64,000 nucleotides of DNA from Bacteroidota bacterium (GCA_026391835.1 JAPLDF010000075.1:384422-448421); one strand, 5' to 3'. Positions 22,555-64,000 are shown, counted from the stretch's first letter. Notes: a model not told the origin generated them from the letters alone. Numbers and translations are program-made.

Positions 22555-22559
22555 AGCTA

Positions 22560-23192
22560 TTGGAAGAAACAACATATAAGTTATTGCAGGAAGGCAGAGT
22601 TCTTCCTGTGATGGAGGAGTTTTACACCCTCCAGGGTGAAGGATTCAATACCGGGCAGGCAGCATATTTTATTCGTGTTGGCGGGTGCGATGTCGGGTGC
22701 AAATGGTGCGATGTGAAAGAGTCGTGGAATGCCACTGATTTCCCGCCGGTCTCTACAGACCTGGTAGTTGCGCATGCAACATCCTACCCGGCCAGGGCCA
22801 TCGTCGTAACAGGAGGAGAGCCCTTGTTGTACAACATGGATTACCTCTGCGGAGAGTTGCATATCAGGGGCATCCGGATTTTTCTTGAAACATCCGGGTC
22901 ACAGCCGCTCAGCGGAAACTGGGACTGGATTTGCGTTTCCCCGAAAAAAGATGCCCCTCCGATGAAAGAGGTCATCGCACAAGCCAGTGAACTGAAAGTG
23001 ATCATTCATGACAATACCGATTTTCAGTGGGGGGAGGAGAATGCATTGTTCGTTTCACAGGAATGCATCCTATTTCTGCAGCCTGAATGGAGCAAGCATG
23101 AAGTTATGATGCCCGAAATCATCAGCTATATCCAGGCGAATCCAAAATGGAGGATCTCCCTCCAGAGCCATAAATACATGCATATCCCATGA
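22560..23192 (+). CDS. queE: 7-carboxy-7-deazaguanine synthase (radical SAM)
   Basis: EEFYTLQGEGFNTGQAAYFIRVGGCDVGCKWCD (CxxxCxxC). The start is uncertain: TTG at 22560 just after the folD stop is favoured, ATG at 22611 is an alternative, and the ORF-track start at 22455 overlaps folD by 100 nt and is rejected. Confidence 0.8.
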   Translation: MEETTYKLLQEGRVLPVMEEFYTLQGEGFNTGQAAYFIRVGGCDVGCKWCDVKESWNATDFPPVSTDLVVAHATSYPARAIVVTGGEPLLYNMDYLCGELHIRGIRIFLETSGSQPLSGNWDWICVSPKKDAPPMKEVIAQASELKVIIHDNTDFQWGEENALFVSQECILFLQPEWSKHEVMMPEIISYIQANPKWRISLQSHKYMHIP

Positions 23193-46160: not shown

Positions 46161-47975
46161 TTAATTTTTCTCCAGCCTTGATATCAACATTTTATCTCCC
46201 CTGGTTGTTTCGCTAAAAAAATAGAGGTAGCTATTGGTTGATAATACATTATGGCTGGGATAAAGATAATATTTCCTGTTTTCATCCTCACCAAGTGTTT
46301 TAAAGTCTGATGCCTTTTTACTTTGCACGTCGATATTGCCATATTCAATGGAGTACAGCGGGGTATACGTGGTGGTGGTCGTAGTTGTGCCACTGAAATA
46401 ATCATGATCGGAACTTGACTCCTTTTCAATGGCCTTGACAATATGCAGGATCCAGTTTAATTTGGTTTTATCTTCACTTTCGTAAACGGCACTGCTGGTA
46501 GGGATCATGTCGGAAGTTAATGGTGAATGGTTGAAAAATCCCTTTTTCCCTTTCTGATCAATGCTGACCGTATAGTTTTTGATCAGCTCCCCCTGCTGTG
46601 TAAAATGCAGCAAAAACATGCCCTTATAAATGTAGGGGCGGTATTCTGATTTGCTTTTTTTAAAGTCCTGGATACTCAGTACAATGCTTTTATCACTTAG
46701 AAAATCAACATTGGAAACTGTAAACATTTTACCATCGAATTTTAATGGTTTTTTCATGTCGGGAGGACAAACAGCTTTTTCATTAACTTCATCGATTTCT
46801 GTTATTTTACTGCCAACTTTCCCGTCTGTGAGTTTGCAGAAAACAAATGAATTATAGGTTAACAAATCCAGTCCTTCGTCAATTTTTTCTTGCGTTACGC
46901 CAACTTCATCTTTGCCTGAAAGGGAGGCACCAAGCTTGGCGAATCCGCCAAATGCCCCGGCTTTCGAAGTGTTCGCCTGTGCCTGGTCTTCAGCATCGTT
47001 GCTGGTTGTGGCAACACATCCCGTTTTAAAGATCTGGTTGACGAATTTACTCTCCTTACCGCTGCCCATTCCATAAATTAGCACGGAATTATCTTTTTCA
47101 TAGGCATCGATGATGCGCCATCCAACGGTTGGTGCCGAAAACTTTACACGTTCCGTTATTTTTCCTTCCGGTGTTATCCTGAGGTACTCAAATCCATGTG
47201 CGTCGGGGGCCGTGTTGTTTTTCACCACATTGGTGGGTGCATAAATCAGGATCCAATCCCTGGGCAAATCGTCGTTTTCAATAGATTCGCTCTGGTCATC
47301 CTTTAACGGTTGAGAATAAACACAGGTCATGGAATAGGGGAATTCAACTTTTTCAAGTACGGTGATGTTGAGTTCGTTGTCACTTTTCAACAAGTCGAAA
47401 CTGCCGTATAATTTGTCCTTTGGATCTGCTGCATTGAGGGCCATCACCAAAATGGTACTGTCGCGCTCTATTTCATACACACCGCCAAAAAATTTATATT
47501 TTTTCCCACTTTCATTGCGTGGCTTCACTTTATCAAGCATCTTGACTTTCCTTTCATATTGACCGGTCCACCAGTTATATTTGGCAGTGATCCTTTTTTT
47601 TCTGAATACCAGGTCCGCTGAATAATTGGCGGATGCAGATATATTATTGGCTAAAAAATAGTCGCCCTTGTAATTGAACCATTTCCATTTTTTCCTGGCT
47701 TTTTCAATTTCAAGTTCATCCTTTTCAACATTCAGCAGGGTGGCTTCTTTATCAAAATGGTAAATTTCCGATTTGATTTTACGCTGGGAGGAGGGCAGGA
47801 TGAAGATCATATCGAAATTCCCGCCTTCTTTTTCTTCGACATTTCCCAGGTATCCTTTTTTTGCCTTCCTTGATATTTCATAATCTTTTTCCAACATCAT
47901 TTTTTGTGCAAAAACAGATGTTAAATTACTGAGAATTAGAAAAATAATTGCAGTTAAGTAGTTGGTGTGTTTCAT
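46161..47975 (-). CDS. hypothetical secreted protein
   Basis: 604 aa with a signal peptide (MKHTNYLTAIIFLILSNLTSVFAQ). Lysine-rich; no motif recognised. Confidence 0.6.
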   Translation of the reverse strand: MKHTNYLTAIIFLILSNLTSVFAQKMMLEKDYEISRKAKKGYLGNVEEKEGGNFDMIFILPSSQRKIKSEIYHFDKEATLLNVEKDELEIEKARKKWKWFNYKGDYFLANNISASANYSADLVFRKKRITAKYNWWTGQYERKVKMLDKVKPRNESGKKYKFFGGVYEIERDSTILVMALNAADPKDKLYGSFDLLKSDNELNITVLEKVEFPYSMTCVYSQPLKDDQSESIENDDLPRDWILIYAPTNVVKNNTAPDAHGFEYLRITPEGKITERVKFSAPTVGWRIIDAYEKDNSVLIYGMGSGKESKFVNQIFKTGCVATTSNDAEDQAQANTSKAGAFGGFAKLGASLSGKDEVGVTQEKIDEGLDLLTYNSFVFCKLTDGKVGSKITEIDEVNEKAVCPPDMKKPLKFDGKMFTVSNVDFLSDKSIVLSIQDFKKSKSEYRPYIYKGMFLLHFTQQGELIKNYTVSIDQKGKKGFFNHSPLTSDMIPTSSAVYESEDKTKLNWILHIVKAIEKESSSDHDYFSGTTTTTTTYTPLYSIEYGNIDVQSKKASDFKTLGEDENRKYYLYPSHNVLSTNSYLYFFSETTRGDKMLISRLEKN

Positions 47976-48137: not shown

Positions 48138-49460
48138 TTAACCCGAGAAATTTCCGTTTTTTTCCCGGTTGTCGATGAATTTGACAGGTTTCCGGCTGAT
48201 TTCAGGAAACTGCATTTTTTGAATTGTGCTTTCGGAAGCAAAGGTGATCAATGGGGCTACACGCAATTTTGCACGGAAATGGTCTTTGATGTCCTTCTCT
48301 TTTTCTTCGCCAATTCCTTTACCACTCAAGTGCATGAGAATTTCGTCGGTACCGATCTGGTTTGTATATACCTCAACAATGTAATTTGAAATGTAGTCGA
48401 TGTTGTCAAGAATATCATAGAGGGCGGGAGGGAACAAGGTGGTTCCTTTGTATTTGATCATCTGGTTCTTTCTGCCTACAACCGGGCCGAGCCGCATGGT
48501 GTTTCTGCCGCAGGGGCAGGGACTTGTAAAATGGTGGCAAACATCGCCTGTTTTAAACCGAAGAAGGGGCATTCCTTTCACACCCAGGGTGGTAACGGTA
48601 ACTTCGCCAAGTTCACCTTCTCTGACGGGCATGTTGTTATCATCCAGGAATTCAACAATAATCAGTTCCGGGTGATGATGCCCTCCGGTACCTTGCCGGC
48701 ATTCGGTAAATGTTGTGCCCATTTCGGTGGATGCATAGGTGGAAAACAGCTGGAGGGGCCATTTTTCCTCAATTTTTCTTCCCAGGGTATTGAGCGAAAG
48801 ATCGCTTTTCCGCAAAGGTTCACCGATGCAAATGGCACTTTTGATGCTGCTCGACCTGTAATCGATGCCTTGTTGCTCGGCATATTCAATGATCTTCAGG
48901 ATAAAGGAGGGGACGGCAATGATGGCATTGGGTTTGATCCTTTGAATTGTATCCCACTGAAGTTCGGGTATCCCGTTGCCCACCCTGACAACGCTTGCAC
49001 CAAGCATCCTGATTCCCAGGAAATAAGCCAGACCTGCCATAAACCGCCGGTCCATGGTGGTCATCAGCTGATAAACATCCGATTCACTTCCGCCTGCACA
49101 CGTAAAGGAGACTGCCTCATTGTAAGCAAGCCGGTCCAGGTCGAGATCGGTCATGGCAAAGGTTACTGGTTCACCCGATGTTCCTGAGGTGGTGATATAA
49201 TCGATAATTTTATTTTTTGAAACACACAGGAAATCCTCATTCCGTTGTTGCAGGTCATCTTTTGTGGTGACCGGGATACGCACAAGGTCCGCCACAGTTT
49301 TAATTTCACGGATATCAATATGATTTTTGTTAAACAGGTCTCCATAGAATGGAGAATTGGCCTTGAGATATCCGAGTGCATCGTGTAGCCTTAAGTTTTG
49401 ATATGCAGCAATATCCGAAAGTTGTTCACATTCAATTGGCGGAAAAAAGGGTGTGTTCAT
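48138..49460 (-). CDS. PaaK / coenzyme F390 synthetase-like adenylate-forming ligase
   Basis: 440 aa: TSGTSGEPVTF (adenylation P-loop-like), YASTEMG, and GDV...C-x-CGR near the C-terminal domain. Confidence 0.75.
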   Translation of the reverse strand: MNTPFFPPIECEQLSDIAAYQNLRLHDALGYLKANSPFYGDLFNKNHIDIREIKTVADLVRIPVTTKDDLQQRNEDFLCVSKNKIIDYITTSGTSGEPVTFAMTDLDLDRLAYNEAVSFTCAGGSESDVYQLMTTMDRRFMAGLAYFLGIRMLGASVVRVGNGIPELQWDTIQRIKPNAIIAVPSFILKIIEYAEQQGIDYRSSSIKSAICIGEPLRKSDLSLNTLGRKIEEKWPLQLFSTYASTEMGTTFTECRQGTGGHHHPELIIVEFLDDNNMPVREGELGEVTVTTLGVKGMPLLRFKTGDVCHHFTSPCPCGRNTMRLGPVVGRKNQMIKYKGTTLFPPALYDILDNIDYISNYIVEVYTNQIGTDEILMHLSGKGIGEEKEKDIKDHFRAKLRVAPLITFASESTIQKMQFPEISRKPVKFIDNREKNGNFSG

Positions 49461-49668
49461 GTTTCTGTAATAAGTTTAAAATCAATCCAGAGGTCAGATG
49501 CTCCCTCAATTCGAGTTCAAGGCTCCTGCGTTTATAAACATAATCATCCATGTAGTTGGCCGAAATGTAAGATCCTATCAGCATAGGTCCGTATTTTCCG
49601 GCATCTTTTTCAACAAAGAGGATCACCTGTTATGCCGGATAATCCACGAAACCTTCTTTCTCCTTCAT
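49432..49668 (-). other. small ORF interrupted by an in-frame TAA (possible decayed gene or GTG-initiated 64-aa ORF)
   Basis: The minus strand reads ATG(49668) MKEKEGFVDYPA, then TAA (49630-49632), then in frame Q-V(GTG 49626)ILFVEKDAGKYGPMLIGSYISANYMDDYVYKRRSLELELREHL... It overlaps the ligase start. Confidence 0.3.
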
Positions 49669-49717
49669 GGGGTGCAACCGTTATTTCCGCTTTAGCATGA
49701 AGCAAAAGTAGGAAGAT

Positions 49718-50570
49718 TCAGCCAATCTTCCGGGCTTCGATCAGGCTGACAGGTGCAATAGTCGGTATTATCCTGTTCATCATGAACCCCGAATGTTCCA
49801 GCAGATCCCTGTATTCAGCGGCTGTCCGTTCTTTTGCTCCCTGCAGCGTTGCCATCATCTGGATATCAAGCAATTTGGCGAGTGATGGCGAATTGCCTGA
49901 CGGAACAACCATTTCGATGATCAGCACGGAGGCGCCGGGTTTCATATCCTCCTCCGATATCCGCGATCAGCGGAAATTTTGAAAAATCACAGGCATTGAG
50001 AATGGGTGCAAGCCCGAGATCGGAAAGATTGGACATGGATTTATCGAAAAGGGCATATTCCCCGGGATGGTCTTTGAGAAACAAATAAATCTCTTTTCCA
50101 TATTTATCAGCAAATGCATCTTTTCCTGTCCTGACGGCATATTCCAGGTTGCTCATCAGGTTCCAGTTGACAGGGCCCAGGTGATGGAGTATCGCATGAC
50201 GCATAGAACCCGGCTCGTCAAGAAGGGCCCTGGTCATCCTGTTCAGGGCAAAACGCCCGCCGCGCTTCTCTGTAAAAATTCCCTGGCTGGAAAGGGCTCT
50301 CAGTATCCGTGAAATGTTGGAAGTGTCAAGGTTAAGGTGTTTTGAGATTTCCTCTGCAGTTAATGGCTTGTCCTTAAGGAGTGTGGCGATATCAAGTTTG
50401 GCAGCAACGTACATGGCCGGCATAAGCCAGAAATACTGAAACTGTTCATACAGTACGACATTCCCGGGGAACAGCCTCTTGTTCAGCTGAATTAAAAAAG
50501 TCCGGAAAGTGTTGATGGCTTTAATGAACCAAACGGGCGGAAGTTTTTGAATGCGCGGTGGTTTTGCCAT
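49718..50570 (-). pseudogene. class I SAM-dependent O-methyltransferase (family 2 type) remnant with internal deletion and frameshift
   Basis: ORF 49866-50570 encodes the dimerisation/wHTH N-domain up to the SAM motif I (LIADIGGG) and then runs into nonsense. ORF 49718-49945, in another frame, begins at the post-motif region (MKPGASVLIIEMVVP...) and ends like an O-MT C-terminus. The roughly 90 residues normally lying between these are absent. Confidence 0.7.
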
Positions 50571-50590
50571 GGGAAACAGCGCTCGTCAAT

Positions 50591-52378
50591 CTATCGGACA
50601 GGCAGGTTTTTCAGCTGGACCTCAAATTTTTCAAGATCTGCGATCAGCTTTGATTTTTTATCCTGGAAGTTCAGTTTGACGGTTGAAAACAGCTCTTTAT
50701 AATACTGAATGCCTTTGCCAAGATTATCCCTGAAGGTAGTAAAATACTCCTCCTGTTTTTCTGACCATGGGTGCGCAGTTTCATCGAGCTTGCTTTTGAG
50801 GTAATCAATGTATATCATCAGTTCCTTGATGAACATGTGGGGGCGGTCTTTTCGTTTTATGACATTGATTTTACCGTAAATATGATCAACCATCTCCTTC
50901 AGCGTCATCACTTCGGAAAAATAGGCCATGTTGGGGCCCGGGCAAACTGAAACGCCTGGTTTTTCTATCCTGGTATCAAGGTGGTTTACCAGCAGGGCAG
51001 AAGTTCCAAGGCCGACACAGATGCACGATTTGTCAACCACTTTATTGTATTCAGCCTGAAATTCATCCTCAGGCAACCCACTGGCTTTTAATGAATCAAT
51101 TTTCAGTTTCTGGTATTTCCTGGAAGCAGTGCAAAGCGTTGGTTCCCCAAATTCGTTGCTCAGTGCCGCATATTTTTTAGGGCAGGGGTTGCCGGGGGTA
51201 TGATGTTGAATATATACCTCTTTTTCAATGTCTTTGGTATTACCTCTCAGGTTATTGAATGGAACACCAAGCGGGCTGATGTTGCTGATGAACAGGTCTT
51301 CTTCCTTGGCCTTACATAAAAGTTCGAGCGTTTTTTCATCAACGTTTACCACTTCAGGAACAAGCAGGAATGGTGTGCCCCAGCCAATGGAGTCAAGTTG
51401 ATAATGTTCGGTGAGAAACTGATGTTCTTCAGCTGTTCCCACGCCACCCTGGGCAGTAATTTTAATATCAAGAGGTTCTTCCGGGCAGGGACGGTTTTTA
51501 GCTTTGAGAGCTGTCTTCAATAAGGTAAACGTTTGCTGGATGAGGTCCTCACGGTTGCGATTGATCTCTTCGAGCACCGGACCAAGCAGGAAACCGGTTG
51601 TCGGAAAAGCATGGCCACCACAATTCAGGCCTGATTCGATACGGTATTCAGAAACCCATAGTCCTTTTTTTGCAAGGTACTTTCCCTGGATCAGTGCCGA
51701 CCTGTGGTCACTCACCTTCAGGGTAATTTTTTTCTTTAACCTGAAATCCTTGTCTGGATAAAATTCATCAAAGGTTTCAAGATAATTATATAAACGGGGA
51801 CTCATCCCGGCCGATAAAATAACCGACGAGGAGAGGTCGCTGTTGACAAATCCACGCAAAGCCGCATGGCCGTCATTGTATTCGATAGGAAGTTTTTCGT
51901 GATTGCGGTAATTTTCCTTGTCAACCTTGGTCATGATGTTCACATCAATGTTTCCCAGGGAAAGATTTTCATGGATCCATTCCTTCACATCGAGTTTGTC
52001 CCAATCTTTTTTAAGCCGTTCAAATTTTTGCTTCACATGAGACGAATCGTGAAGCATTTCAATATATTTTGAAAATTCACTGCTTTTTTGATCAAATGTT
52101 GATTTTAGCTCCTCAAACTTATCCCTGGCTATCTTGTCCATCATATTCAGATAGGCAGTGATGCGTTTTGCCCTGAAATCGTCAATTTTTTCAGAAATAG
52201 CCTGGAAAGGAAGGTCGAATTTTTTGCTGTAGAATTCTCTGAGTCGTTCCATCAGCATATCGTCCAGCAATGAAATCACAGAGGAGATTCCGAGGTGGGC
52301 CACCTTTACGGGTGTATCAATTGAATAACCAATTCCCAATACAGGAATATGGAAAGAATGAGGGGTCTCTTTATTCAT
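50591..52378 (-). CDS. hypothetical 595-aa protein, possibly a TIM-barrel flavoenzyme-like fold
   Basis: Start trimmed to M34 of the ORF (MNKETPHSFHIPVLGIGYSIDTPVKV). The internal strings ESGLNCGGHAF and ITAQGGVGTAEEHQFL...GWGTPFLLVPE resemble, by eye only, phosphate-binding segments of FMN TIM barrels (glutamate-synthase / NMO / PfaD-ER type). Confidence 0.55.
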   Translation of the reverse strand: MNKETPHSFHIPVLGIGYSIDTPVKVAHLGISSVISLLDDMLMERLREFYSKKFDLPFQAISEKIDDFRAKRITAYLNMMDKIARDKFEELKSTFDQKSSEFSKYIEMLHDSSHVKQKFERLKKDWDKLDVKEWIHENLSLGNIDVNIMTKVDKENYRNHEKLPIEYNDGHAALRGFVNSDLSSSVILSAGMSPRLYNYLETFDEFYPDKDFRLKKKITLKVSDHRSALIQGKYLAKKGLWVSEYRIESGLNCGGHAFPTTGFLLGPVLEEINRNREDLIQQTFTLLKTALKAKNRPCPEEPLDIKITAQGGVGTAEEHQFLTEHYQLDSIGWGTPFLLVPEVVNVDEKTLELLCKAKEEDLFISNISPLGVPFNNLRGNTKDIEKEVYIQHHTPGNPCPKKYAALSNEFGEPTLCTASRKYQKLKIDSLKASGLPEDEFQAEYNKVVDKSCICVGLGTSALLVNHLDTRIEKPGVSVCPGPNMAYFSEVMTLKEMVDHIYGKINVIKRKDRPHMFIKELMIYIDYLKSKLDETAHPWSEKQEEYFTTFRDNLGKGIQYYKELFSTVKLNFQDKKSKLIADLEKFEVQLKNLPVR

Positions 52379-52397
52379 TGTTAGGGTTAAGGAATTG

Positions 52398-52405
52398 CAA
52401 ATATA
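52398..52405 (-). promoter_or_regulatory. -7 promoter box (TATATTTG on the minus strand)
   Basis: Matches TAnnTTTG; lies 19 nt upstream of the ATG at 52378. Confidence 0.45.
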
Positions 52406-52541
52406 CGGCTTTTTATCCACAATCGGAATTACGGGTAAGTCATCATAAATTCGCCTGCGGCAATAGCATTCAAGCAAGATAAAAGGGTGAGTTCCGATAG
52501 GAGTGTTAAGCTGTGGGGGAGAAAACCGGTCGGCGAAAAGA

Positions 52542-52928
52542 TCAGGCTTCCATCATTTCATCCACCTGTTCGGGAAGGAGCCTGGACCAGGTGGGATTAA
52601 CAAGTGCCTTACCATCGACATTAAACGTCACAAGGTCAAAGGTCTCACCATAAAAGGTGAGTTTGCTCCCCATATCAGGTGTGTGTTCAATAAATATAAA
52701 TTTTTCTGCAGGGCACCGGAGCTCGCTCATGATCTGGGTTGCCAGCGGGGCGCACCATTCTGTCACAGGTGTCCCGGGATTTTGCCGGTAGATCTCGGTA
52801 GCTATGGCCAGTATTTTGCCATCATTCCGGTTTATTACCTTTAAGCCGCAGATGGATGGACTGTCCCATTGTCCGGAGTAGGTGAAATAGCGGTCCATGT
52901 ATTTGTTGAAGTCGGGATTGGTCTCCAT
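52542..52928 (-). CDS. hypothetical 128-aa cytoplasmic protein
   Basis: ORF with no signal peptide and no recognised motif. It lies 47 nt downstream of the radical SAM gene. Confidence 0.5.
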   Translation of the reverse strand: METNPDFNKYMDRYFTYSGQWDSPSICGLKVINRNDGKILAIATEIYRQNPGTPVTEWCAPLATQIMSELRCPAEKFIFIEHTPDMGSKLTFYGETFDLVTFNVDGKALVNPTWSRLLPEQVDEMMEA

Positions 52929-52975
52929 AAGTTAAAAAGCGAAATGGTGAAAAAGCGAAAGGATGAAATAATATG

Positions 52976-54247
52976 TCAGACAAGTTTAGGGACTTTTTTT
53001 CCAAAGCTGAGATCGGCGATGTCGCGCCGGCGGGGGGTATATGTACCGTCTGCAATTTCCCTGGAAACCACCTTGTTGATCAGGTTAAACATCTTCATTG
53101 TCTGAGGTTCATCCTTATAGAAGGTATCCCATGCATACTGGTAGAGTTCAGTCAGTCTTTCGGCCGACATGTGCTTGGGATGGTATACGACTTTCCCTGC
53201 ATTATAGTGGTTCCAGTCTGTATCAAAAATGCGTCCCTGTTTCAGAAGGTCGCTGTAGGCCTTTGTGTGGGGAAAGGGGGCAAGCACCGTGAACTCAGCC
53301 AGGTCAAGTTCAATTTCGAGGAGGAAGTCAACCAGCCGCTTGATATCATCTTCGGTCTGGTTGTCAAGCCCCAGTAAAATTGTGCCTTCAACGGCAATGC
53401 CGTACTGGTGATATTGCTTAATGCGGTTCTTTATGTAATCAGACGTATCAAACACTGCCTGATATACATACCATGCGCCTGCCTGGGCAGCTAAATCAAG
53501 TACCTCGTCTTTGTCTTCAATGGTGTGGCTCACCCATTTCTTTTTTAATGGGATCATCTCCCTGAAAAGATCCTTTTCCCATTGGGTATCGAGGGCAAGC
53601 GAGTTATCAACGATGAACAGGCGGTTGTTGTCCATTTGTGACAGTTCTTCCACAACACGGTCGATCGGGCGGGGGCGGAAGCCCCTTCCTCCAAGGTAGC
53701 GCACGGCGCAGGGATAGCAATCGTAAATACATCCACGGGAGGCGTGGAAGAGATCGACCATTCGGAATCCTTTGTGATAGTAAAGGTCTTTTTTAAGGAT
53801 ATCCCTTTTGGCCGGCCCGATAAGGCTCATATCGGGAGGTTTGCTCATGAAATTATAGATCTTTTTCAGGTCATTCTTATGAAAATCCTGGAAGACCTGG
53901 TCCAGCCGGCCTTCAACTTCACCAAGGAAGACCGAATCGGCATGCATCATGGTCTCTTCGGCATGCAACATGGTGGAGATACCGCCGAAAATAACTTTCT
54001 TGCCGAGTTTACGGTACTGGTCTGCAATTTCCCAGCCACGTTTGACCTGTGTGGTCAGCATCATCGAAATTCCTACAAAGTCAGGACTTTCGTCAATTAC
54101 CAGGTCTTCGACATTTTCGTCGGTAAAGTCGATTTCGATGTTGTGAGGGATTTCAGCAGCCATTACCACCGGTCCGTGTGGCGGCAGGTTAAATATGGTT
54201 TGTCCCTCAAGTTTTTCCCAGCGGGGATATATCAATTTGAATTTCAT
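52976..54247 (-). CDS. B12-binding-domain radical SAM enzyme (class B)
   Basis: 423 aa. N-terminal cobalamin-binding-like Rossmann segment (DFVGISMMLTTQ...KVIFGGISTM), then SRGCIYDCYPCAV (CxxxCxxC). Confidence 0.8.
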   Translation of the reverse strand: MKFKLIYPRWEKLEGQTIFNLPPHGPVVMAAEIPHNIEIDFTDENVEDLVIDESPDFVGISMMLTTQVKRGWEIADQYRKLGKKVIFGGISTMLHAEETMMHADSVFLGEVEGRLDQVFQDFHKNDLKKIYNFMSKPPDMSLIGPAKRDILKKDLYYHKGFRMVDLFHASRGCIYDCYPCAVRYLGGRGFRPRPIDRVVEELSQMDNNRLFIVDNSLALDTQWEKDLFREMIPLKKKWVSHTIEDKDEVLDLAAQAGAWYVYQAVFDTSDYIKNRIKQYHQYGIAVEGTILLGLDNQTEDDIKRLVDFLLEIELDLAEFTVLAPFPHTKAYSDLLKQGRIFDTDWNHYNAGKVVYHPKHMSAERLTELYQYAWDTFYKDEPQTMKMFNLINKVVSREIADGTYTPRRRDIADLSFGKKVPKLV

Positions 54248-54342
54248 TTGTCGGTTGTTTGTTGTTTACTGCCCCGGCAGGGCCGTGCCTGATAACCGTT
54301 TCACCTCACAAATGTTCAGCATTCACCGGATTGGCAGCGCGG

Positions 54343-54350
54343 CAAAGTTA
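54343..54350 (-). promoter_or_regulatory. -7 promoter box (TAACTTTG on the minus strand)
   Basis: Matches TAnnTTTG; lies about 95 nt upstream of the radical SAM ATG, within the 170-nt spacer. Confidence 0.4.
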
Positions 54351-54417
54351 TAAAAAAAATCAAATAGGTAATAAGATACATATCCAGGAATCTGTCCCAG
54401 TGAAGTTCTACTGAATT

Positions 54418-55608
54418 TCAGCCATTGCGCTGTTTCCGGAACAACTGCAGGAGGAGATAAGTGGCTGGTCCAAGGACAACTGCAAGTGTTACTCCAAAGA
54501 AAAGGCTGCCGATAAGGTACTGTACCAGGTTCTCCTTAACCCATTGTAATCCTAAACCCGGCGTGTATTGCATGTTCGACATATTGGCCCCCATTACCCA
54601 TCCGCCGATGATGTAACTCAGGAAGATTACAAACGGAAGCATGGGAGGGAGGCTGATATTGGAAACCGTCACTGCTACAAACTTGTTTAATTTGAAGAGA
54701 TGCGCCAGTCCCAGGGTTGTAACAATCTGCCATCCCCAGATCGGCGTCACCCCGATGAAAAGTCCAAGCGCCACGGATTTTGCCAGTTTGGCATTTGAAT
54801 CCTGGCTGTTGACCACGTATTCCATGAAAAATTCACGGACTGACTTTTTCCGGAGCCCTTTAAAAAAAGACAATGGACGAACCCAAAGCAAGGCCAGGAA
54901 GACCAGGATGCTGTTGGCGATGCTTACCCGGGTAAAATCCCTGAATTTCCTGAAATGAGAAACACGGGTTTCTTTTGGTGCATAGTATACCTTAACAGGA
55001 ACAGATAGGATGCTCACGTTTCGCCATGCAAGCCGCACAAGGATTTCAACTTCGTATTCATATTTTTTGGAAATGATCCCCCTGATTTCCCGTATTTTAT
55101 CCAGAGGATAGAGGCGAAAGCCGGTTTGAACATCCAGTACGGTCATACCGGTTTCAACTTTAAACCAGAAAATAGAAAATTTGTGTCCGAAACTGCTGGT
55201 TCCGGGAACCTCCTCCTGTGTCATATTGCGGGCACCCAGGATCATAGAATCAGGATGTTTCTCAGCCATTTCAAGGAACAACGGTAGATCTTCAGGGTAA
55301 TGCTGGCCATCGCTGTCGATGGTTACAGCGTACCTGTATCCATGTTCAATGGCAGATGCGAATCCCTGGCGCAGGGCCCAGCCCTTGCCCGTGTTTACCG
55401 GAATATTGATTTTCTGAACTGAAGGAAACCTCTCCAGGATTGACCTGGTGGAATCAGTTGATCCGTCGTTCACCACGATAACATTACCGGTGTACGACAA
55501 AACCCCGTTGATTACCTCTTCAAGGGCATGGTCGTTGTTGTAAGTCGGAATGATGATACAACAATTGAGGTCACTGAATTTTTGTCGTACCAGGGGTAAA
55601 CTGAGCAT
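54418..55608 (-). CDS. family 2 glycosyltransferase fused to a DUF2062-like membrane domain
   Basis: Start moved to M17 of the ORF to remove the overlap with the upstream gene. GT2 motifs IIIPTYNN, VVNDGSTD and TIDSDGQH. C-terminal TM domain (GLFIGVTPIWGWQIVTTLGLAHLF...). Confidence 0.8.
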   Translation of the reverse strand: MLSLPLVRQKFSDLNCCIIIPTYNNDHALEEVINGVLSYTGNVIVVNDGSTDSTRSILERFPSVQKINIPVNTGKGWALRQGFASAIEHGYRYAVTIDSDGQHYPEDLPLFLEMAEKHPDSMILGARNMTQEEVPGTSSFGHKFSIFWFKVETGMTVLDVQTGFRLYPLDKIREIRGIISKKYEYEVEILVRLAWRNVSILSVPVKVYYAPKETRVSHFRKFRDFTRVSIANSILVFLALLWVRPLSFFKGLRKKSVREFFMEYVVNSQDSNAKLAKSVALGLFIGVTPIWGWQIVTTLGLAHLFKLNKFVAVTVSNISLPPMLPFVIFLSYIIGGWVMGANMSNMQYTPGLGLQWVKENLVQYLIGSLFFGVTLAVVLGPATYLLLQLFRKQRNG

Positions 55609-55625
55609 TTGTGTTGTCAAACGAA

Positions 55626-56018
55626 TTATTTCTGCAACCCTTTTGCCCATTTGCAAACCATGTCAATTTCAGCCTGGGTGGGGACATCATTGGGATTGTT
55701 GGCACGCCATTTTTTTGGCGGCATTGAGCTTTTGGTCAGCACTTTGCACATTGCGCCGGCCTTACTGATTTGTTTTTCAGAATCATATTTTTCCCAGGCT
55801 GAGAAATTGATTTTCCCCTTTGCCATGAAATTTCCGTCATCGGAATGACAATCCATGCAAGCTTTCTGAACGATTTTGTGAATGCTGTCGGGCAGTGCTG
55901 TTCCGGGACCGCCGGCATTGGTTTTTTTTGATCCACTGGCCGTTTGGGGGTTCATGACAATGGCAACGGCAAAAAGGACACTCGTTGCAAGGAGGGACAC
56001 TAATGCAATCTTTTTCAT
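55626..56018 (-). CDS. small secreted/anchored haem-binding-domain-like protein (CxxCH)
   Basis: 130 aa with a signal/anchor. Contains KACMDCHSDDG and MPPKKW..., typical of the Haem_bd family as recalled. Confidence 0.65.
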   Translation of the reverse strand: MKKIALVSLLATSVLFAVAIVMNPQTASGSKKTNAGGPGTALPDSIHKIVQKACMDCHSDDGNFMAKGKINFSAWEKYDSEKQISKAGAMCKVLTKSSMPPKKWRANNPNDVPTQAEIDMVCKWAKGLQK

Positions 56019-56086
56019 GGGTTATGGTTTTTATTTTTACAAAGATAGGCTGAATTAACAAAGCACAGCAATATAATATTTTATAC

Positions 56087-57115
56087 TTAATGCTCAAAAG
56101 GGCCCTTGGAAATCTCAAAAAACTCCCTTATCGCATGGTTCGCATCATCAATCGGTGCATGTGCCTGTGCTGTATATCTTTTCGCTGAAGAGAACCAGGT
56201 TTGTCTCAGGTATCCGATGATTTCCAAACTGTTTTCAGGTTCTTCACCAGCTATTTCTACCTGTGGATAATTGTAAAACCCTTGATGGGTTTTCACACCG
56301 AGTTTCCCCTGAGAGACAAGTTCCGACATGGCTGCTGTCAATTGGAAAAAGTAACTTTTATGGGGATAGTTCCGCAGGTAATTCAGTATAGCAGTAAGCA
56401 TGGTGTCCAGCCCGGTGCGATCGCAAAAGCCAAAGATGCCAATGGGGAATAAATGTGTTATAACCAGTTGATCCATTTGCCCGTAACTGCAATTACCAGC
56501 ATGAACGAGCAGGAATGCTTCATTCAGAACATCCAGAAAAATCCGGTTTAATATGAAACTGTTCGTTTCCTCAAGGGTAATAAAACGTCTTCCGATTTCA
56601 GAGAGAAATGATTCAAGGTGTGATTGTGTTTGTGCGGTTGTATCTTGATTAACAGTAATTTCGACAATATTCTTCAGGTGAACAGGATAGAAAAAAAGAA
56701 GGCCGGTAAATTTCGCTTTGCGCTGACCTGCAGGAGCCATTTCAGATGGATTAAATGAAGATGAATTGGAAGCAAAAATGGCCCCGGGCTTGACAACCCG
56801 GTCTAGCAGCAAGAACATGTTTTTTTTCAGGTCACCGGTTTCAGGTAAAGCTTCAATAACCATGTCGCATAAAGCAAGGTCAGTTAAATTCCGGGAAATG
56901 ACAGTTCGTTTCACTTTATCAAACCGGTGCCGGCCGGTTATTCCTGCATCAAACGATTGTTTGACATATGTGTTCAACTGCCAGGTGAGCTTTTCAATAT
57001 CTGCTTCGGGACTGCAAACCCAAACCAGTTCAAAATGAAAATCAAGAAGATAGGTGAGGATGTCTGTCCCCATTTTACCTTCGCCAAGGATGCCAACCTG
57101 ACTGATTTGCGACAT
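56087..57115 (-). CDS. 3-hydroxyacyl-CoA dehydrogenase-like protein with a non-canonical active site
   Basis: 342 aa. Rossmann N-terminus (VGILGEGKMG), ASNSSS and SFILNRIF are present. The canonical G-L-H-F-F-N-P reads GLLFFYP. Confidence 0.7.
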   Translation of the reverse strand: MSQISQVGILGEGKMGTDILTYLLDFHFELVWVCSPEADIEKLTWQLNTYVKQSFDAGITGRHRFDKVKRTVISRNLTDLALCDMVIEALPETGDLKKNMFLLLDRVVKPGAIFASNSSSFNPSEMAPAGQRKAKFTGLLFFYPVHLKNIVEITVNQDTTAQTQSHLESFLSEIGRRFITLEETNSFILNRIFLDVLNEAFLLVHAGNCSYGQMDQLVITHLFPIGIFGFCDRTGLDTMLTAILNYLRNYPHKSYFFQLTAAMSELVSQGKLGVKTHQGFYNYPQVEIAGEEPENSLEIIGYLRQTWFSSAKRYTAQAHAPIDDANHAIREFFEISKGPFEH

Positions 57116-57123
57116 CGTTCGTT

Positions 57124-57510
57124 TTATGAACCTGGAACAAATTTCCCTTTGAATTTGAAAAATATGGTTGTCCCTGAACCAATGGAAGCAGTGGCAGAAA
57201 GTTGCTGATCACTCAGGAGCCTGATGAGGATATCGAACTCAATGACCTTGTTTGTGGTGGGATTGATCATCGACAGAAACTTGATGTTGTCGGACTCTTT
57301 GAGAAGCAGGGCGCGATTCACGGCCAATTCAACGAGTTCCTTGACCATCTGAACCTGGCACACCCCCGGTACTACCGGGTTTCCGGGGAAATGTCCCTGG
57401 AAAATCGGGTGATTGTCATTCAGGGATGCCACTGCCCGGAGCCTCAAATGTGTCTCATCAGGGTTATCAATTGTAAACGATTGAATTTCAAAAAAGGATC
57501 CCGAAAGCAT
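57124..57510 (-). CDS. FabZ/FabA-like hot-dog fold dehydratase
   Basis: 128 aa: HPIFQGHFPGNPVVPGVCQVQMVKE (the HFPxxPxxPGV motif). Confidence 0.75.
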   Translation of the reverse strand: MLSGSFFEIQSFTIDNPDETHLRLRAVASLNDNHPIFQGHFPGNPVVPGVCQVQMVKELVELAVNRALLLKESDNIKFLSMINPTTNKVIEFDILIRLLSDQQLSATASIGSGTTIFFKFKGKFVPGS

Positions 57511-57576
57511 GGCTGAGGAGGTTTATTTTGGGTGCACCCGCAAAAATAGGAAAAAAAGCAAACCGGTAAAAAAAGG

Positions 57577-58772: not shown

Positions 58773-59453
58773 CTGAGTAAGTGTTAGAGTTGGTTGTTGG
58801 TTTTACGATAGCCCATTGGTGTTTTATTTCTATCCCAGTTGATTATTCCTCATCCGGAACATATTGGTAAAGATCGTTTTTAATGGCCCCCTGCGCAATT
58901 GGGGATATTTGTAAAATGCCTTTCCGGGAAACCACAATACGTTTTCGTAATTTGTAAAATTATAATGCAATATATCAGCATATTGAAGAAATACTATGGC
59001 GTACCATGTCCACGCCCATAAAGATGAGGTTTGTATGAATTCCGCCATTAATCCTGAAAAGCCGGTTCACCCGGTAATCAGATAAAAAACACTTGACTTA
59101 GTGGTGTTTTTAATGTATATTTGCTACTGTTAGGTAATTAAACGAATTAAAGCATTGCTGAATTATTGCCTTCTACGACTCTCCATCCGCTGATACAGCT
59201 GATTAATATCACCTTTAATTCGTAATTGTTTGGTTTTCAAATTTTTCAAATTTGATTGAAAAATGGATAAAACTAAACCATTTATTAGGGAGCAGAACAG
59301 TCTTTTCCATGAACCCTGTATTTGGGAGAAAATACAGGGCTCTCCTATATACAATCCATTTTCAATCCTGGATCCGGCTATTATGCTGGTGCTTGGGAAT
59401 TCTATGGTTTAACGAATTATATAGTTACACATTAATATCAAAAACAAAAACCT

Positions 59454-62400
59454 ATGAAAAGACTAATACTTTCATTTATTGCGCTGACAATGTGCAGTTT
59501 AAGTTTTGGGCAGTTGTCGGGGCAGAAATTCATCCCGGGAATAACCGGTGATCCCAATTCCTATGCGACACTCGCCCTGGCCATTTCGGATCTTAATTCG
59601 GTTGGTGTTGGCCCGGGAGGAGTAACCTTCAATGTTGCAACAGGTTATACTGAATTCACTGTGATTCCCCTGCTGATTACAGCGACCGGGACGCTGGCGG
59701 ATCCTATCCTTTTTCGCAAGGACCCTGCCCTGGTCGGCGTCCACCCTGTTGTGCACCGGACTGATGCAGGTACCATTGCCACATCCACGCTGGGTGGACA
59801 GGGAGATGCCGTGATCATCATACAGGGGAGTGATTACATTACGTTTGATGCCATCGATGTCTTAGCAGACAATGCGGGTGTAGAATATGGCTATTACCTG
59901 CGAAAAGCCTCCGTTACAGACGGATGTAAATTTGTGACCATCAAAAATGCCGCAATAACCATGACAAAAGGGACCAGCTCTTTTGTGGCAGGCATCTATT
60001 CCTCAAATAACGATGTATCTTCACTTCCATCCTCGGCAACCGGGATAACCGTTACGACCGTCGGGGGAAGAAATGAGAGCGTGACGCTCACAGGAAATAC
60101 AATTGGCAATGTTTTTGCCGGCATTTTGCTCCGGGGATACAATCATACAACAACACCATATGACCTGCAGGATCAGAACAATGTAGTGGGTACGTCCGGA
60201 GCAGGCAATACGATTCAGAATTTTGCCGGCAATTTTGCAGCTGCTTCTTATGGCGTTTACCTGATCTACCAGACAAACCCAAGCGTATGCTACAACGTGA
60301 TAAACAACGTAGCCGGGGGAGGAACCAACGCCACTCTCACTGTTTACGGTATTTTTATGTCAAGCACAAACGCCGGTGGAAATTTTGTTGCCAACAACAA
60401 TGAGATCAGCCTTGGACAAGGCTCTGCATCGGGAGCACACTGTATTTACAATGCCCAGCCCTGTAATTCGATCACAATAAACAACAACATGTTCAGCTAT
60501 GGGACATTTGCTTCAACCACAACCTCCTATCTTATCAACTGCAGCAATGCAACCCCGAACATCATGGTTAGTGGGAATTCAACGGTTGGAACGATTACCA
60601 AAACCGGGATCGGTCAACTGGAAGGTTATTACAATTTCGGGAGCCCCTTAAGCGGAACGGCAACAATCAGCAACAATACCTTCTCGAACATAGTACTTAC
60701 AGGTGCTTCGGCTTTCTATGGAATTCGCCAGTATTCATCGGTCAACCAGGTGGAGATTATTTCCAACAACACCATCAGCAATATAACCGGCGGGACTTCG
60801 ACCCTGTATGGAATATACCAGGGGTATGGCGCTGCAGGCAGCCTCGTGAACAGCAACATGATTACAAACTGGACAGGTTCCGGTGCCATGGTTGGCATCT
60901 ACGTTGGAGCAAGCATTGCACCGGTTTCCCTGAATGTTGTCAACAATACCATCAACGGGCTGAGTACCACAGGCACCTCTATTTATGGCATACAGAATCT
61001 CCTTGGTACTGCAACCAACATACAAAAGAACAGGGTATGCAACCTGCAGGCCAATAATGCCAGTGGAATTGTTTATGGTATCTACCTTTCAGGAGGCACA
61101 ACCACAAATGTGTATAACAACTTTATAAGTTCCCTGGGCACACCCATTGCCAATGCGGCCATTCCACTTGCCGGCATTTATGTGTCGGGAGGAACAAATG
61201 CCAACGTGTTTTTTAACTCGGTTAACCTATACGCGAGCAGTACCGGCGCATTGTTCGGCAGCGCTGCAGTATATGCATCGACTGCTGTGAACCTTGATAT
61301 GCGGAATAACATTCTGATCAATAAATCCACACCTAAAGGTGCTACAGGTTACACCGTGGCATACAGAAGAACAACCACAACCCTGGCAACCTATTCGAAC
61401 AGTTCCAATGCCAACAATTTCTATGCGGGGCCTCCGGGGCCTGCCAACCTTATCTTTTATGACGGCACCAATGCCGATCAAACCCTGGCGGCATATAAGC
61501 TAAGGGTGGGGCCTGTAAGGGACAATTCATCGTTTTCCGAAGATACTCCATTTGTAGCCCCACTTTGCGATCTCCATCTGAATCCTGCTATTCCGACATT
61601 TTGCGAAAGCGGGGGCGTGCAGATACTCAATCCCATTTCTATCACGGACGATATTGATGGAAATGTCCGGACCATAGTCCCTGACGTCGGGGCCGATGAA
61701 TTTGACGGCATTTTTGCAGGTGTGGTCAATCCCGGAAATGTAACCGCCACGCCAATCAGCTCGCAGCAAATCAACCTTGGCTTCATCCCCAATCCATCAA
61801 ATAACAATGTGCTGATTGTGTGGAATTTAACAGGAATTTTCACACCTCCTGCCGGGCTACCACCTGCACCGGGAAACTCATTTGCAGGCGGAACTGTACT
61901 TTCCTACGGGATCACTTCACCCGTTATACATACGGGCCTCACCTGGGGAACGACTTACTACTATAAACTATTCTCCTACAATGGATCAAGTTATTCAGCA
62001 GGACTTTCGACCTTTGCAGTTCCTTCCGTTTTACAACCAGCCTCCCTGACAGCTGTCGCATCCGGGCCAAACCAGATTGACCTTAGCTGGGCGCGGAATA
62101 TTTTCCTGAATAATGTAATCATCGCCACCAACACCGTCAATACATTCGGAGATCCTGTAAATGGAAATGCGTACATGGCCGGAAGCCCTTTGGCGGGGGG
62201 CGGAACCATCATCTATGTGGGTCCGTTGACTTCGTTCAGCCATACAGGCTTGAACCCTGTTACCACCTATTACTACAAGGCCTGGTCGGTTGATGGTTTT
62301 ACCTATTATTCCGGCGCGGGTGTTATTGCAAATGCCACTACCCCATGCCTCCCGGTATCAACGTATCCGTGGACTGAAGGGTTTGAGCCACCCACTGTTA

Positions 62401-64000
62401 TTCCTGCCATGCCGATTTGCTGGTTTAAGGAAAACGGGGATTGGGTTACCACCAACAATGCCAATGCCACATATGATGCCGATGCACGTTCAGGCATACA
62501 ATTTTTGAGAGAATCATACATGGCCACCAACGAATATGTATGGACTCCGGGGTTTTTACTTTCACCCGGATTTTCATATGACTTTTCATTCTGGTGGGCT
62601 GGAGATACTTTTGCAGGCTGGCAGGGTGATGTCTTTTGCAATACAACCCAGTCTTCGGTGGGGGCGGTGCAACTTGGGTTGCCTTTTGTGGAATTGTCCA
62701 CGGTCACTACCAAAACCTATGCCCAGGTTACCCGGACTTTTACCCCGCCCACAGCAGGTATATACTTTTTTGCAATAAGGGTCAATTGCCCGACAACGAC
62801 GCCGTGGTACCTTAGTTTTGACGACTTCCAGGTGGTTGAACGGCAACAGGTGGTTGTCACCGGCCAGGTTGTCGATTCGCTGGGTATTGCACCCCCGGTC
62901 CAACAAATGTATATTTGTGCCCACAGGGCATGCGGCCCCAATGACACATTAAGTACGCTCAACGGAGGGATTGAGTATCACGTTGCGGGCGGAATAGGAA
63001 CATACACCATTCACTGCAACAACTTCACGAATCCACCTGCTGTAGGAGAGGAGTTGTTTATTAATTTCAGCAACCGGTCAACCCTTGAGTTTGAAGCGGC
63101 AACAGTGGTTGTCGGGCCTCTGCCGACGATTTATTATAATCCGGTGATACGTTTTGCTGTCCATAAATACCTGCCATCCAGAACTTCCTATACCTGGGTA
63201 GTTGTACCACCTCATACTTCACTCAAAGTCCATTACCGATGGACCGGTACCTGCGGCAATACAGATGTGTATTACTGGAATGGCTTTTCCTGGGTGAAGT
63301 ATGTCCAGTGGAACCACAACCACTATTGTACCTGGCGATATATCTATAACAGCAGCAATAACTGGCGGTATTTTAAGATTCACAACGATTCCCAAAGTTA
63401 TATATGGTTCGACCTGATTTATGACCTGGCTGTTTTTGCCAATACACCTGGCAATTATGCCGAATATGCTACTGTTGATGTGGGCTGGCGAAACCGGCCT
63501 TACACTTCATGTGAGTTGGGTAATATCGTTGCACCTACACATACGTTTGTCAACCAGGAAGGTGCGGTCCTGTCAGGTTTTCCATCAAGACTGGGCACCG
63601 ATGGCGTTCAAAACCTCACCATCCAGTTTGAGAGTTACAACAACATGTTCTGGAATGATATGAACCTCATGATCGACCTGGTTAACGTCACCCAGCCCGG
63701 CACCCTTGAACTTTACATACCGGATGCCACGATTCCGCATACCACTGCTTCTATAAATGCAGGGGATACCGTGTGTTACTTCAATCCCGGAGGAATACTC
63801 GCCCCCGGGACACATACAATGACCTTATCCGTCTCGGGCGGGCTTTCAATCGGGTTGGATGCGTTCAACTTCACTTCTGTGGTGCCTTATCCGGCACTGC
63901 CGTCTGTAACCACAACCCCGGTCAGCGGCATTACCTCCACATCTGCAACCAGCGGGGGTAATGTAACATCCGTGGGAGGCGCCCCGGTAACGGAAAGAGG
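59454..64000 (+). CDS. giant secreted surface protein, N-terminal 1515+ codons (open at the right edge): beta-helix repeats, FN3-like modules, MAM/choice-of-anchor-J-like module
   Basis: Absent from the ORF track because there is no stop before the window end. ATG at 59454 gives MKRLILSFIALTMCSLSFGQ (signal peptide). Many N-N-x-I/G-I-Y type beta-helix turns from about 59.9 to 61.4 kb. YYYK-containing FN3-like modules from about 61.7 to 62.3 kb. The frame was verified at the end (…PSVTTTPVSGITSTSATSGGNVTSVGGAPVTER). Confidence 0.8.
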   Translation, partial: MKRLILSFIALTMCSLSFGQLSGQKFIPGITGDPNSYATLALAISDLNSVGVGPGGVTFNVATGYTEFTVIPLLITATGTLADPILFRKDPALVGVHPVVHRTDAGTIATSTLGGQGDAVIIIQGSDYITFDAIDVLADNAGVEYGYYLRKASVTDGCKFVTIKNAAITMTKGTSSFVAGIYSSNNDVSSLPSSATGITVTTVGGRNESVTLTGNTIGNVFAGILLRGYNHTTTPYDLQDQNNVVGTSGAGNTIQNFAGNFAAASYGVYLIYQTNPSVCYNVINNVAGGGTNATLTVYGIFMSSTNAGGNFVANNNEISLGQGSASGAHCIYNAQPCNSITINNNMFSYGTFASTTTSYLINCSNATPNIMVSGNSTVGTITKTGIGQLEGYYNFGSPLSGTATISNNTFSNIVLTGASAFYGIRQYSSVNQVEIISNNTISNITGGTSTLYGIYQGYGAAGSLVNSNMITNWTGSGAMVGIYVGASIAPVSLNVVNNTINGLSTTGTSIYGIQNLLGTATNIQKNRVCNLQANNASGIVYGIYLSGGTTTNVYNNFISSLGTPIANAAIPLAGIYVSGGTNANVFFNSVNLYASSTGALFGSAAVYASTAVNLDMRNNILINKSTPKGATGYTVAYRRTTTTLATYSNSSNANNFYAGPPGPANLIFYDGTNADQTLAAYKLRVGPVRDNSSFSEDTPFVAPLCDLHLNPAIPTFCESGGVQILNPISITDDIDGNVRTIVPDVGADEFDGIFAGVVNPGNVTATPISSQQINLGFIPNPSNNNVLIVWNLTGIFTPPAGLPPAPGNSFAGGTVLSYGITSPVIHTGLTWGTTYYYKLFSYNGSSYSAGLSTFAVPSVLQPASLTAVASGPNQIDLSWARNIFLNNVIIATNTVNTFGDPVNGNAYMAGSPLAGGGTIIYVGPLTSFSHTGLNPVTTYYYKAWSVDGFTYYSGAGVIANATTPCLPVSTYPWTEGFEPPTVIPAMPICWFKENGDWVTTNNANATYDADARSGIQFLRESYMATNEYVWTPGFLLSPGFSYDFSFWWAGDTFAGWQGDVFCNTTQSSVGAVQLGLPFVELSTVTTKTYAQVTRTFTPPTAGIYFFAIRVNCPTTTPWYLSFDDFQVVERQQVVVTGQVVDSLGIAPPVQQMYICAHRACGPNDTLSTLNGGIEYHVAGGIGTYTIHCNNFTNPPAVGEELFINFSNRSTLEFEAATVVVGPLPTIYYNPVIRFAVHKYLPSRTSYTWVVVPPHTSLKVHYRWTGTCGNTDVYYWNGFSWVKYVQWNHNHYCTWRYIYNSSNNWRYFKIHNDSQSYIWFDLIYDLAVFANTPGNYAEYATVDVGWRNRPYTSCELGNIVAPTHTFVNQEGAVLSGFPSRLGTDGVQNLTIQFESYNNMFWNDMNLMIDLVNVTQPGTLELYIPDATIPHTTASINAGDTVCYFNPGGILAPGTHTMTLSVSGGLSIGLDAFNFTSVVPYPALPSVTTTPVSGITSTSATSGGNVTSVGGAPVTER

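Follow-up and report, generated by a model that had tools for sequence, protein, structure and literature searches.

A probable eroded copy of the distal part of a flexirubin-type aryl-polyene cluster in a Bacteroidota contig

The block of minus-strand genes at 48138-57510 in a 64-kb stretch of DNA from a Bacteroidota bacterium (JAPLDF010000075.1:384422-448421; the whole 64,000 nucleotides (nt) are called the window) is very probably the distal part, from flxS to flxY, of a flexirubin-type aryl-polyene pigment cluster, in a variant carried by uncultured, mostly Bacteroidales-like Bacteroidota and reduced here by several deletions. Its ligase belongs to the FlxY family, the neighbourhood of its relatives is flexirubin-type, and many members of the cluster have been lost from the window. 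An initial annotation had presented the block as unclassified, as a distinct tailoring system and as the strongest candidate in the window for an undescribed one. This headline falls, because the ligase is a FlxY equivalog, because the relatives carry FlxU, FlxV, FlxW, DarG, DarH, acyl carrier protein (ACP) and the FlxA tyrosine ammonia-lyase (TAL), and because remnants of flxW and of a darG-like gene lie in the window: the block is a fragment of a characterised cluster type, which the annotation had itself named as its refutation. The resemblance to aryl-polyene and flexirubin clusters that it had also noticed is carried by the same FlxY equivalog and by the flx and dar genes of the relatives.

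Results

The ligase and the gene order are of the flexirubin type

The 440-amino acid (aa) ligase at the downstream end of the block is a member of the NCBIfam equivalog NF053551 (FlxY_rubin), with a full-length alignment scoring 709.7 bits against a cutoff of 520 (E 1e-213). FlxY from Chitinophaga pinensis is a 4-coumarate-CoA ligase in vitro and primes the flexirubin aryl-polyene chain (PMC3992019). The published flx order is flxS (dehydratase-like), flxT (family-2 glycosyltransferase), flxU (exporter/acyltransferase), flxV (reductase), flxW (C45 acyltransferase), flxX and flxY (PMC3992019, supplementary tables). Besides the FlxY-type ligase, the window displays a hot-dog dehydratase followed by a FlxT family-2 glycosyltransferase (GT2). 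The parts of the block are, in the direction of transcription:

57124-57510, minus strand: hot-dog FabA/FabZ-like dehydratase, 128 aa (PF07977 FabA, 32.3 bits; HFPGNPVVPG motif intact)
56087-57115, minus strand: 3-hydroxyacyl-CoA-dehydrogenase-like (HADH-like) protein, 342 aa (3HCDH_N, 108 bits, and 3HCDH, 56 bits; 8-nt gap to the dehydratase)
55626-56018, minus strand: small exported CxxCH haem-binding-domain protein, 130 aa (PF14376 Haem_bd, 48 bits; CMDCH motif; signal-like N-terminal segment)
54418-55656, minus strand: GT2-DUF2062 fusion, FlxT-like glycosyltransferase (PF00535, 85 bits, and PF09835, 75 bits)
54336-54383, minus strand: 3' remnant of flxW, 48 nt, inside the spacer between the GT2 and radical SAM genes, holding the box at 54343-54350
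52976-54247, minus strand: B12-binding radical S-adenosylmethionine (SAM) protein (rSAM), 423 aa, intact (PF02310, PF04055; CIYDCYPC motif intact)
52542-52928, minus strand: 128-aa protein (u128), constant partner of rSAM (no Pfam or NCBIfam match)
50591-52378, minus strand: 595-aa orphan protein (u595; no Pfam, NCBIfam or PDB match)
49718-50570, minus strand: O-methyltransferase (O-MT) pseudogene (N-terminal 234-aa piece, 49866-50570; out-of-frame C-terminal 75-aa piece, 49718-49945)
49480-49668, minus strand: DarG-like 5' remnant, 63 codons (ATG at 49668, in-frame TAA at codon 13)
48138-49460, minus strand: FlxY-type aryl-acid (4-coumarate)-CoA ligase, 440 aa, intact (AMP-binding, PaaK-like; NF053551)

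All the co-directional open reading frames (ORFs) announced by the initial annotation between 48138 and 57510 are present, ten in number, and Pfam and NCBIfam uphold its domain calls; its spacers and -7 boxes were found as well. The dehydratase is the counterpart of the FlxS/ApeI-type dehydratase, and its orthologue in a related locus (L096, 2570-3031) gives a weak ApeI-like match. The GT2-DUF2062 protein, the true start of which is probably slightly downstream of the TTG, is 60% identical to the product of L085 1712-2929, the gene immediately ahead of a FlxU-like MMPL/acyltransferase gene.

Relatives carry a conserved flexirubin-type operon

Related loci (numbered with an L) were fetched with u595, rSAM and u128 as queries, and a metagenome scan with an alignment of u128 yielded 44 loci of at least 12 kb each. 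Related metagenomic contigs share a conserved operon of ~20 kb, ordered FlxT (GT2-DUF2062), FlxU, FlxV, FlxW, rSAM, u128, outer-membrane protein, in some cases u595, O-MT, ABC-2 permease, DarG, DarH, ACP, sulfotransferase, a 229-aa protein and FlxY. The rSAM gene is adjacent to u128 in all 44 loci, with FlxV present in 41, FlxW in 39, the O-MT in 36, the outer-membrane protein in 35, a DarG-like protein in 34, DarH in 33, ACP in 32, FlxU in 30 and GT2 in 29, the counts of FlxU, GT2 and FlxY being limited by the 10-kb flank. GT2 followed by FlxU is the arrangement in 29-30 of the 44.

Among individual loci, L007 begins with a FlxV-like CrtI-family oxidoreductase, the C45 acyltransferase FlxW (NF040521, 221 bits), rSAM, u128, a 795-aa CarboxypepD_reg/Plug outer-membrane protein and u595, and continues with an intact 365-aa O-MT, an ABC-2 permease, a DarG-like protein (matching NF053545/NF053536), DarH (NF053550, 324 bits, above 300), ACP, a sulfotransferase and FlxY, after which come the 604-aa and amidohydrolase genes that are also neighbours of the block in the window. 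L008 holds GT2, a 1291-aa FlxU-like gene, FlxV, FlxW, rSAM, u128, u595 and an intact O-MT. In more distant genomes (L085, L086 and L087, rSAM 75-85% identical), the order is FlxT-FlxU-FlxV-FlxW-rSAM-u128-3HCDH, then, further on, O-MT-ABC2-DarG-DarH-ACP-229aa-FlxY in L085, and FlxT-U-V-W-rSAM-u125-OMT in L086, a Lentimicrobiaceae locus. L087 carries an ApeP-like dehydratase, a TIGR04072 B12-rSAM, an LpxL-type acyltransferase, ACP, a ketosynthase (KS), a ketoreductase (KR) and the FlxA TAL (NF053541, 846 bits, above 700), and beside this set a DarG-like protein, DarH, ACP, a sulfotransferase, rSAM, u125, ACP, ACPS and FabD. KS, KR and ACP are present in both L087 and L127. Homologues of the haem-binding protein occur in L005 and L096 and adjoin KS in L127 and L132.

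L005 and L096, from a different, sister species, occupy the same chromosomal site with the amidohydrolase/MutL flank and have a short layout in which all genes are intact (dehydratase-thioesterase-HADH-Haem-GT2-FlxV-rSAM-u128-u595-OMT-234aa-FlxY). The cluster is evolutionarily unstable in the clade of the window. With the closest relatives (L005, L007, L008 and L096, u595 ~87% identical) compared with the window, at least four different layouts were observed: a glycoside hydrolase family 2 (GH2) gene stands at the expected FlxT/FlxU place in L007, and L005 and L096 are without FlxU, FlxW, the outer-membrane protein and DarG/DarH.

This synteny bears on the reading closest to the initial annotation, an independent and undescribed lipid or small-molecule tailoring system acting on a pre-made acyl chain, with rSAM and the 128-aa and 595-aa proteins at its core. 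Such a reading can draw on the published flx/dar gene lists, which contain no radical SAM enzyme and from which u128, u595 and the HADH-like and haem-binding proteins are also missing (the initial annotation had rightly placed rSAM and the CxxCH protein outside the flexirubin canon), on the absence of KS and ACP from the window, and on a search of a literature library in which we found no paper on radical SAM in flexirubin gene clusters. However, besides the FlxY equivalog in the block itself, the rSAM/u128 pair stands beside flexirubin-type genes in nearly all 44 loci, u595 is mostly solitary, and the window spacers hold remnants of flxW and a darG-like gene. With synteny and remnants largely refuting it, we consider an independent system very unlikely.

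The 595-aa protein is a passenger

More than 8000 homologues of u595 were found, all unnamed and ~60% identical across Bacteroidota, Ignavibacteriota, Calditrichota, Latescibacterota and Planctomycetota. In ~75 of 80 genome loci u595 stands alone, with no other gene of the window within 10 kb, and of the 44 rSAM/u128 loci no more than 12 contain it. Clustering of its neighbours in 64 genomes revealed no conserved partner; the commonest were NadA/NadB-like proteins (14 loci), phosphoenolpyruvate carboxylase (12) and AmtB/P-II (~10), a weak hint of central carbon and nitrogen metabolism. The "trio" of rSAM, 595-aa and 128-aa proteins proposed in the initial annotation is thus a pair, which holds in 44 of 44 loci, plus an inserted gene, and u595 was rejected as a component of the cluster on account of its solitary occurrence elsewhere and its lack of a conserved partner.

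No match to u595 was obtained in Pfam, NCBIfam or a PDB profile search. An AlphaFold2 (AF2) model built from 10 sequences was poor (predicted local distance difference test, pLDDT, 55), and its Foldseek matches were TIM-barrel enzymes, not significant at E > 0.05. The conserved Cys- and Gly-rich motifs ESGLNCGGHAF, AQGGVGT and CICVGLGT and an alternating strand/helix pattern suggest a TIM-barrel enzyme.

Deletions have left identifiable scars in the window

Using the proteins of the relatives as tblastn queries, we detected no KS, KR, ACP (three queries), TAL, FlxU, FlxV, FlxW, DarH, ABC-2 permease, sulfotransferase or acyltransferase in the 64-kb window; tblastn combined with family scans of the flanking genes gave no LolA or MMPL homologue over the same 64 kb. 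The absence of KS, ACP, ketoreductase, ammonia-lyase and LolA/MMPL genes reported initially is thereby confirmed.

Some of the missing genes are still represented by fragments. The flxW remnant matches flxW of seven independent loci (L007, L088, L092, L113, L120, L125 and L134) at one and the same 3' segment, with 81-85% blastn identity. The "interrupted small ORF" of the initial annotation is real and corresponds to the DarG-like remnant, which is 80.6% identical in nucleotides to L007 14116-14285 and 49-59% identical in amino acids to the DarG-like proteins of L087 and L085; the spacer that contains it gave 40 blastn matches among the fetched loci.

Intact orthologues of the O-MT have 365-368 aa. 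In the window, the N-terminal piece comprises the dimerisation domain and the first ~70 positions of Methyltransf_2 and stops after the DIGGG motif. tblastn covers residues 1-208 and 297-362 of the 365-aa O-MT of L085, so that ~88 codons, encoding the SAM-binding core, are missing, and blastn shows a gap of ~270 nt relative to L007 12405-12678. No excess of window-specific changes, as a sign of relaxed selection, was observed in the O-MT remnant, and the deletion therefore looks recent. At the upstream end, a 4HBT thioesterase gene lies between the dehydratase and HADH-like genes of L096, where the window has only 8 nt.

The HADH-like protein is only 46% identical to its L005 orthologue, versus 77-92% for the neighbouring genes. 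Its motif reads GLLFFYP in the window versus GLHFYYP in L005 and SLHIS in L085, with His replaced by Leu in the window only. By comparison with His158/Glu170 of human HADH, we take this residue to be the HFFNP-motif His that acts in catalysis together with Glu; the HADH-like protein of the window has lost it. With the O-MT gap, this substitution and the remnants, the decay surmised in the initial annotation, including its O-MT deletion and degenerate catalytic residue, is substantiated.

Altogether, the window has lost flxU, flxV and flxW, darH, the genes for the outer-membrane protein, ABC-2 permease, ACP and thioesterase, the sulfotransferase (or 229-aa) gene and the greater part of the darG-like gene. 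Still intact are FlxT and FlxY, the dehydratase and haem-binding proteins, rSAM with u128, and the 595-aa passenger, which is unrelated; no excess of window-specific substitutions was observed in the surviving genes.

Could mis-assembly or binning of a metagenome have produced the O-MT gap and the absence of genes? The source appears to be a metagenome-assembled genome (MAG), since a 100%-identical u128 is found on an NCBI MAG contig, and the relatives differ in layout. Against this, a separately assembled Logan contig from run SRR20698638 has an identical layout over 10.6 kb, including the 234-aa O-MT fragment and the region of the DarG remnant, the same u128 is present in a second run (SRR20698639), and the junctions, which are clean, show a premature stop codon rather than a contig break. 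An artefact is therefore extremely improbable.

A more serious alternative is a split but working cluster, in which the short layout would be one of at least two loci, the KS, ACP, TAL and export genes would lie elsewhere in the genome, and the pigment would still be made. There is precedent in C. pinensis, in which flx and dar genes occupy separate loci (PMC3992019), and the intact short layout of L005 and L096 in the same amidohydrolase/MutL flank, the intact state of FlxY, FlxT, rSAM (96% identical to that of the nearest relative) and u128 in the window, and the lack of excess window-specific substitutions are all in its favour. However, beyond what L005 and L096 lack, the losses of the window extend to the thioesterase, the O-MT core and the FlxV-like and 234-aa genes, the HADH-like protein has a changed catalytic His, and it is clear from the flxW and darG remnants that genes formerly located at this site were deleted rather than moved. 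We therefore regard a split and functional cluster as possible but doubtful.

Promoter-like boxes in the cluster

TAnnTTTG is the Bacteroidota -7 promoter motif. Minus-strand copies occur in the 170-nt spacer between GT2 and rSAM (54343-54350) and in the 163-nt spacer between u128 and u595 (52398-52405), and a further one near the dehydratase (57541-57548). The box of rSAM being inside the flxW remnant, an internal promoter has outlasted the deletion. Over the whole window the motif is found 73 times for 49.8 expected, a count reached in none of 100 shuffles (0/100), and the minus-strand boxes of the cluster, at 57541, 56040, 54343, 52398, 49703 and 48105, lie just upstream of the dehydratase, Haem_bd, rSAM, u595, DarG-remnant and 604-aa genes.

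The B12-rSAM/u128 pair

The rSAM protein scores 38 bits with PF02310 (above 32.1) and 28.3 bits with PF04055, just below the cutoff of 29.5, and has the CxxxCxxC motif CIYDCYPC. An N-terminal B12-binding domain combined with a CxxxCxxC core corresponds to the features of a predicted class B (cobalamin-dependent) radical SAM enzyme. It falls in no curated NCBIfam subfamily, the best being TIGR04013, with a score of 60 bits where 251 are required. More than 6000 homologues were found, with 74-96% identity among the best 120 listed.

The partner u128 has 337 homologues, all named "hypothetical". Its AF2 model is good (pLDDT 80, predicted template modelling score 0.79), and Foldseek gave no significant match to it in the PDB (best E 0.015, template modelling score 0.29). 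The pair most likely provides, we infer, an oxygen-independent tailoring step, e.g. C-methylation, that acts on either the aryl polyene or the lipid partner of the latter.

Related clusters contain two to four B12-rSAM paralogues (L087 541-1899, L087 14628-15974, L085 149-1489 and L127 2864-5660). The first of these is a true member of TIGR04072 (428 bits, above 360) and stands beside the LpxL-type acyltransferase and ApeP-like dehydratase. Such heavy use of cobalamin radical SAM proteins is unusual in an aryl-polyene cluster.

Flanking genes

The block is flanked by housekeeping genes (MutL, UvrB, rhomboid proteases, amidohydrolase, Ffh, FolD, ThrRS and ArgRS). Beyond the dehydratase lie a FISUMP lipoprotein and then a giant plus-strand ORF (59436-64000), of at least 1521 codons with a signal-like N-terminus, which runs past the end of the window. 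The 58.8-64 kb stretch, devoid of listed ORFs, had been considered as a possible site of decayed KS genes; this was rejected, the stretch being occupied by that single ORF. Directly downstream of FlxY, 46161-47975 on the minus strand encodes a 604-aa predicted exported protein with no family match, the only conserved copy (86%) being that of L007, the closest relative; missing from all 44 metagenome loci, this gene is probably outside the cluster. Two further genes are uncharacterised and unrelated to the cluster, a small 245-aa radical SAM protein beside FolD (22455-23192, plus strand) and a full-length DUF4301 protein (29964-31517, minus strand; 709 bits). An Rfam scan of the window gave no match.

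Discussion

In intact relatives, FlxA would convert tyrosine to 4-coumarate by its ammonia-lyase activity, and FlxY would form the CoA thioester of 4-coumarate, a reaction shown for the C. pinensis orthologue. KS, KR, hot-dog dehydratase and ACP, resembling a fatty acid synthase (FAS) of type II, would then extend this starter to the aryl polyene, which would be tailored by the O-methyltransferase, the sulfotransferase and the cobalamin radical SAM enzymes. Finally, attachment to a lipid anchor and export would involve FlxW, DarG/DarH with ACP, FlxT, FlxU (MMPL and acyltransferase), the ABC-2 permease and the TonB-like outer-membrane protein. From the genes that remain, we infer that the locus in the window is by itself unable to make or export pigment; that the pathway is impaired in the source organism is a somewhat weaker conclusion, which we hold to be more likely than not.

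Several points weigh against reading the block as a reduced flexirubin-type cluster. Pigment production by the organism is putative, with no KS, ACP, KR, TAL, DarA or DarB seen in the window, DarA and DarB having had no dedicated query. Flexirubin is an aryl-polyene ester of dialkylresorcinol. Neither DarA/DarB nor a halogenase was seen in the fetched flanks, again with no DarA/DarB query sequence used, and the product of the variant may therefore not be a true flexirubin. The roles of rSAM, u128, the HADH-like protein and the haem-binding protein in the pathway are putative. As L005 and L096 illustrate, the short layout can be stable and is possibly functional, and the surviving genes may still be used, since lineage-specific substitutions are not in excess in them.

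There is also a bolder view, which we advance only tentatively and rate as somewhat less probable than a split cluster. The rSAM/u128 pair, with the O-MT, sulfotransferase, HADH-like and Haem_bd proteins and the additional B12-rSAMs, may mark out, in Bacteroidales-like bacteria, an oxygen-independent and so far undescribed branch of aryl-polyene/flexirubin biosynthesis. Cobalamin radical chemistry would there perform tailoring steps that aerobes either achieve by other means or do without, and the short layout of the window and of L005/L096 could then be a working module for a different, smaller coumaroyl-derived product.

For the reduced flexirubin-type cluster that we favour, lineage and window should be kept apart: the lineage carries a variant of the cluster of which we found no description, and the copy in the window is an eroded member of it. 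In Bacteroidota, pigments of the flexirubin type serve as chemotaxonomic markers, and few families of bacterial biosynthetic gene clusters are as widespread as the aryl polyenes. A conserved B12-rSAM with its partner in such clusters is a concrete target for a new tailoring reaction, and the lead is the rSAM/u128 module of the intact relatives, not the decayed copy of the window. The value of the window lies in a documented stepwise decay of a cluster with identifiable scars, and in a caution: a cluster is not new merely through missing core genes.

Comparison with known systems

The reference flexirubin clusters are those of C. pinensis DSM 2588 (flxA-flxY, Cpin_1853-1877, and a dar locus, Cpin_6843-6852) and Flavobacterium johnsoniae UW101 (Fjoh_1074-1110). 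The window shares with them the FlxY equivalog and an order, dehydratase, GT2 and CoA ligase, that is collinear and in the same direction as flxS-flxT-...-flxY, and its relatives share the FlxU-like MMPL/acyltransferase, the FlxV-like CrtI-family reductase, the FlxW C45 acyltransferase, DarG/DarH, ACPs, the ABC-2 permease, the FlxA TAL, KS and KR. The window differs in being without KS, ACP, KR, TAL, FlxU/V/W and DarH, whereas the lineage variant exceeds the published flx/dar lists by the B12-rSAM/u128 pair (with up to three further B12-rSAM paralogues), a Methyltransf_2-type O-MT, the sulfotransferase, the CarboxypepD_reg/Plug outer-membrane protein, the HADH-like protein and the Haem_bd protein.

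Aryl-polyene (APE) clusters of the E. coli CFT073/Vibrio fischeri type are type II FAS-like and possess dedicated KS, KR, hot-dog dehydratases of the ApeI/ApeP type and ACPs, together with an enzyme that adenylates the starter, a glycosyl/acyltransferase and, for export, an MMPL protein; their starter-activating enzyme is another one, and they have no TAL/FlxY pair and no DarG/DarH. One dehydratase of the relatives matches PF22817 (ApeP-like) and another is weakly ApeI-like, whereas the ligase of the window scores as FlxY and not as an APE ligase.

The "lipid biosynthesis B12-binding/radical SAM protein" family, TIGR04072, was first noted in ladderane-type and APE-like lipid clusters. The common ground is a B12-rSAM embedded in a KS/ACP/acyltransferase lipid cluster. 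The rSAM of the window scores 39.5 bits against the TIGR04072 cutoff of 360 and is not a member; it belongs to a separate paralogous family, defined by its constant partner u128.

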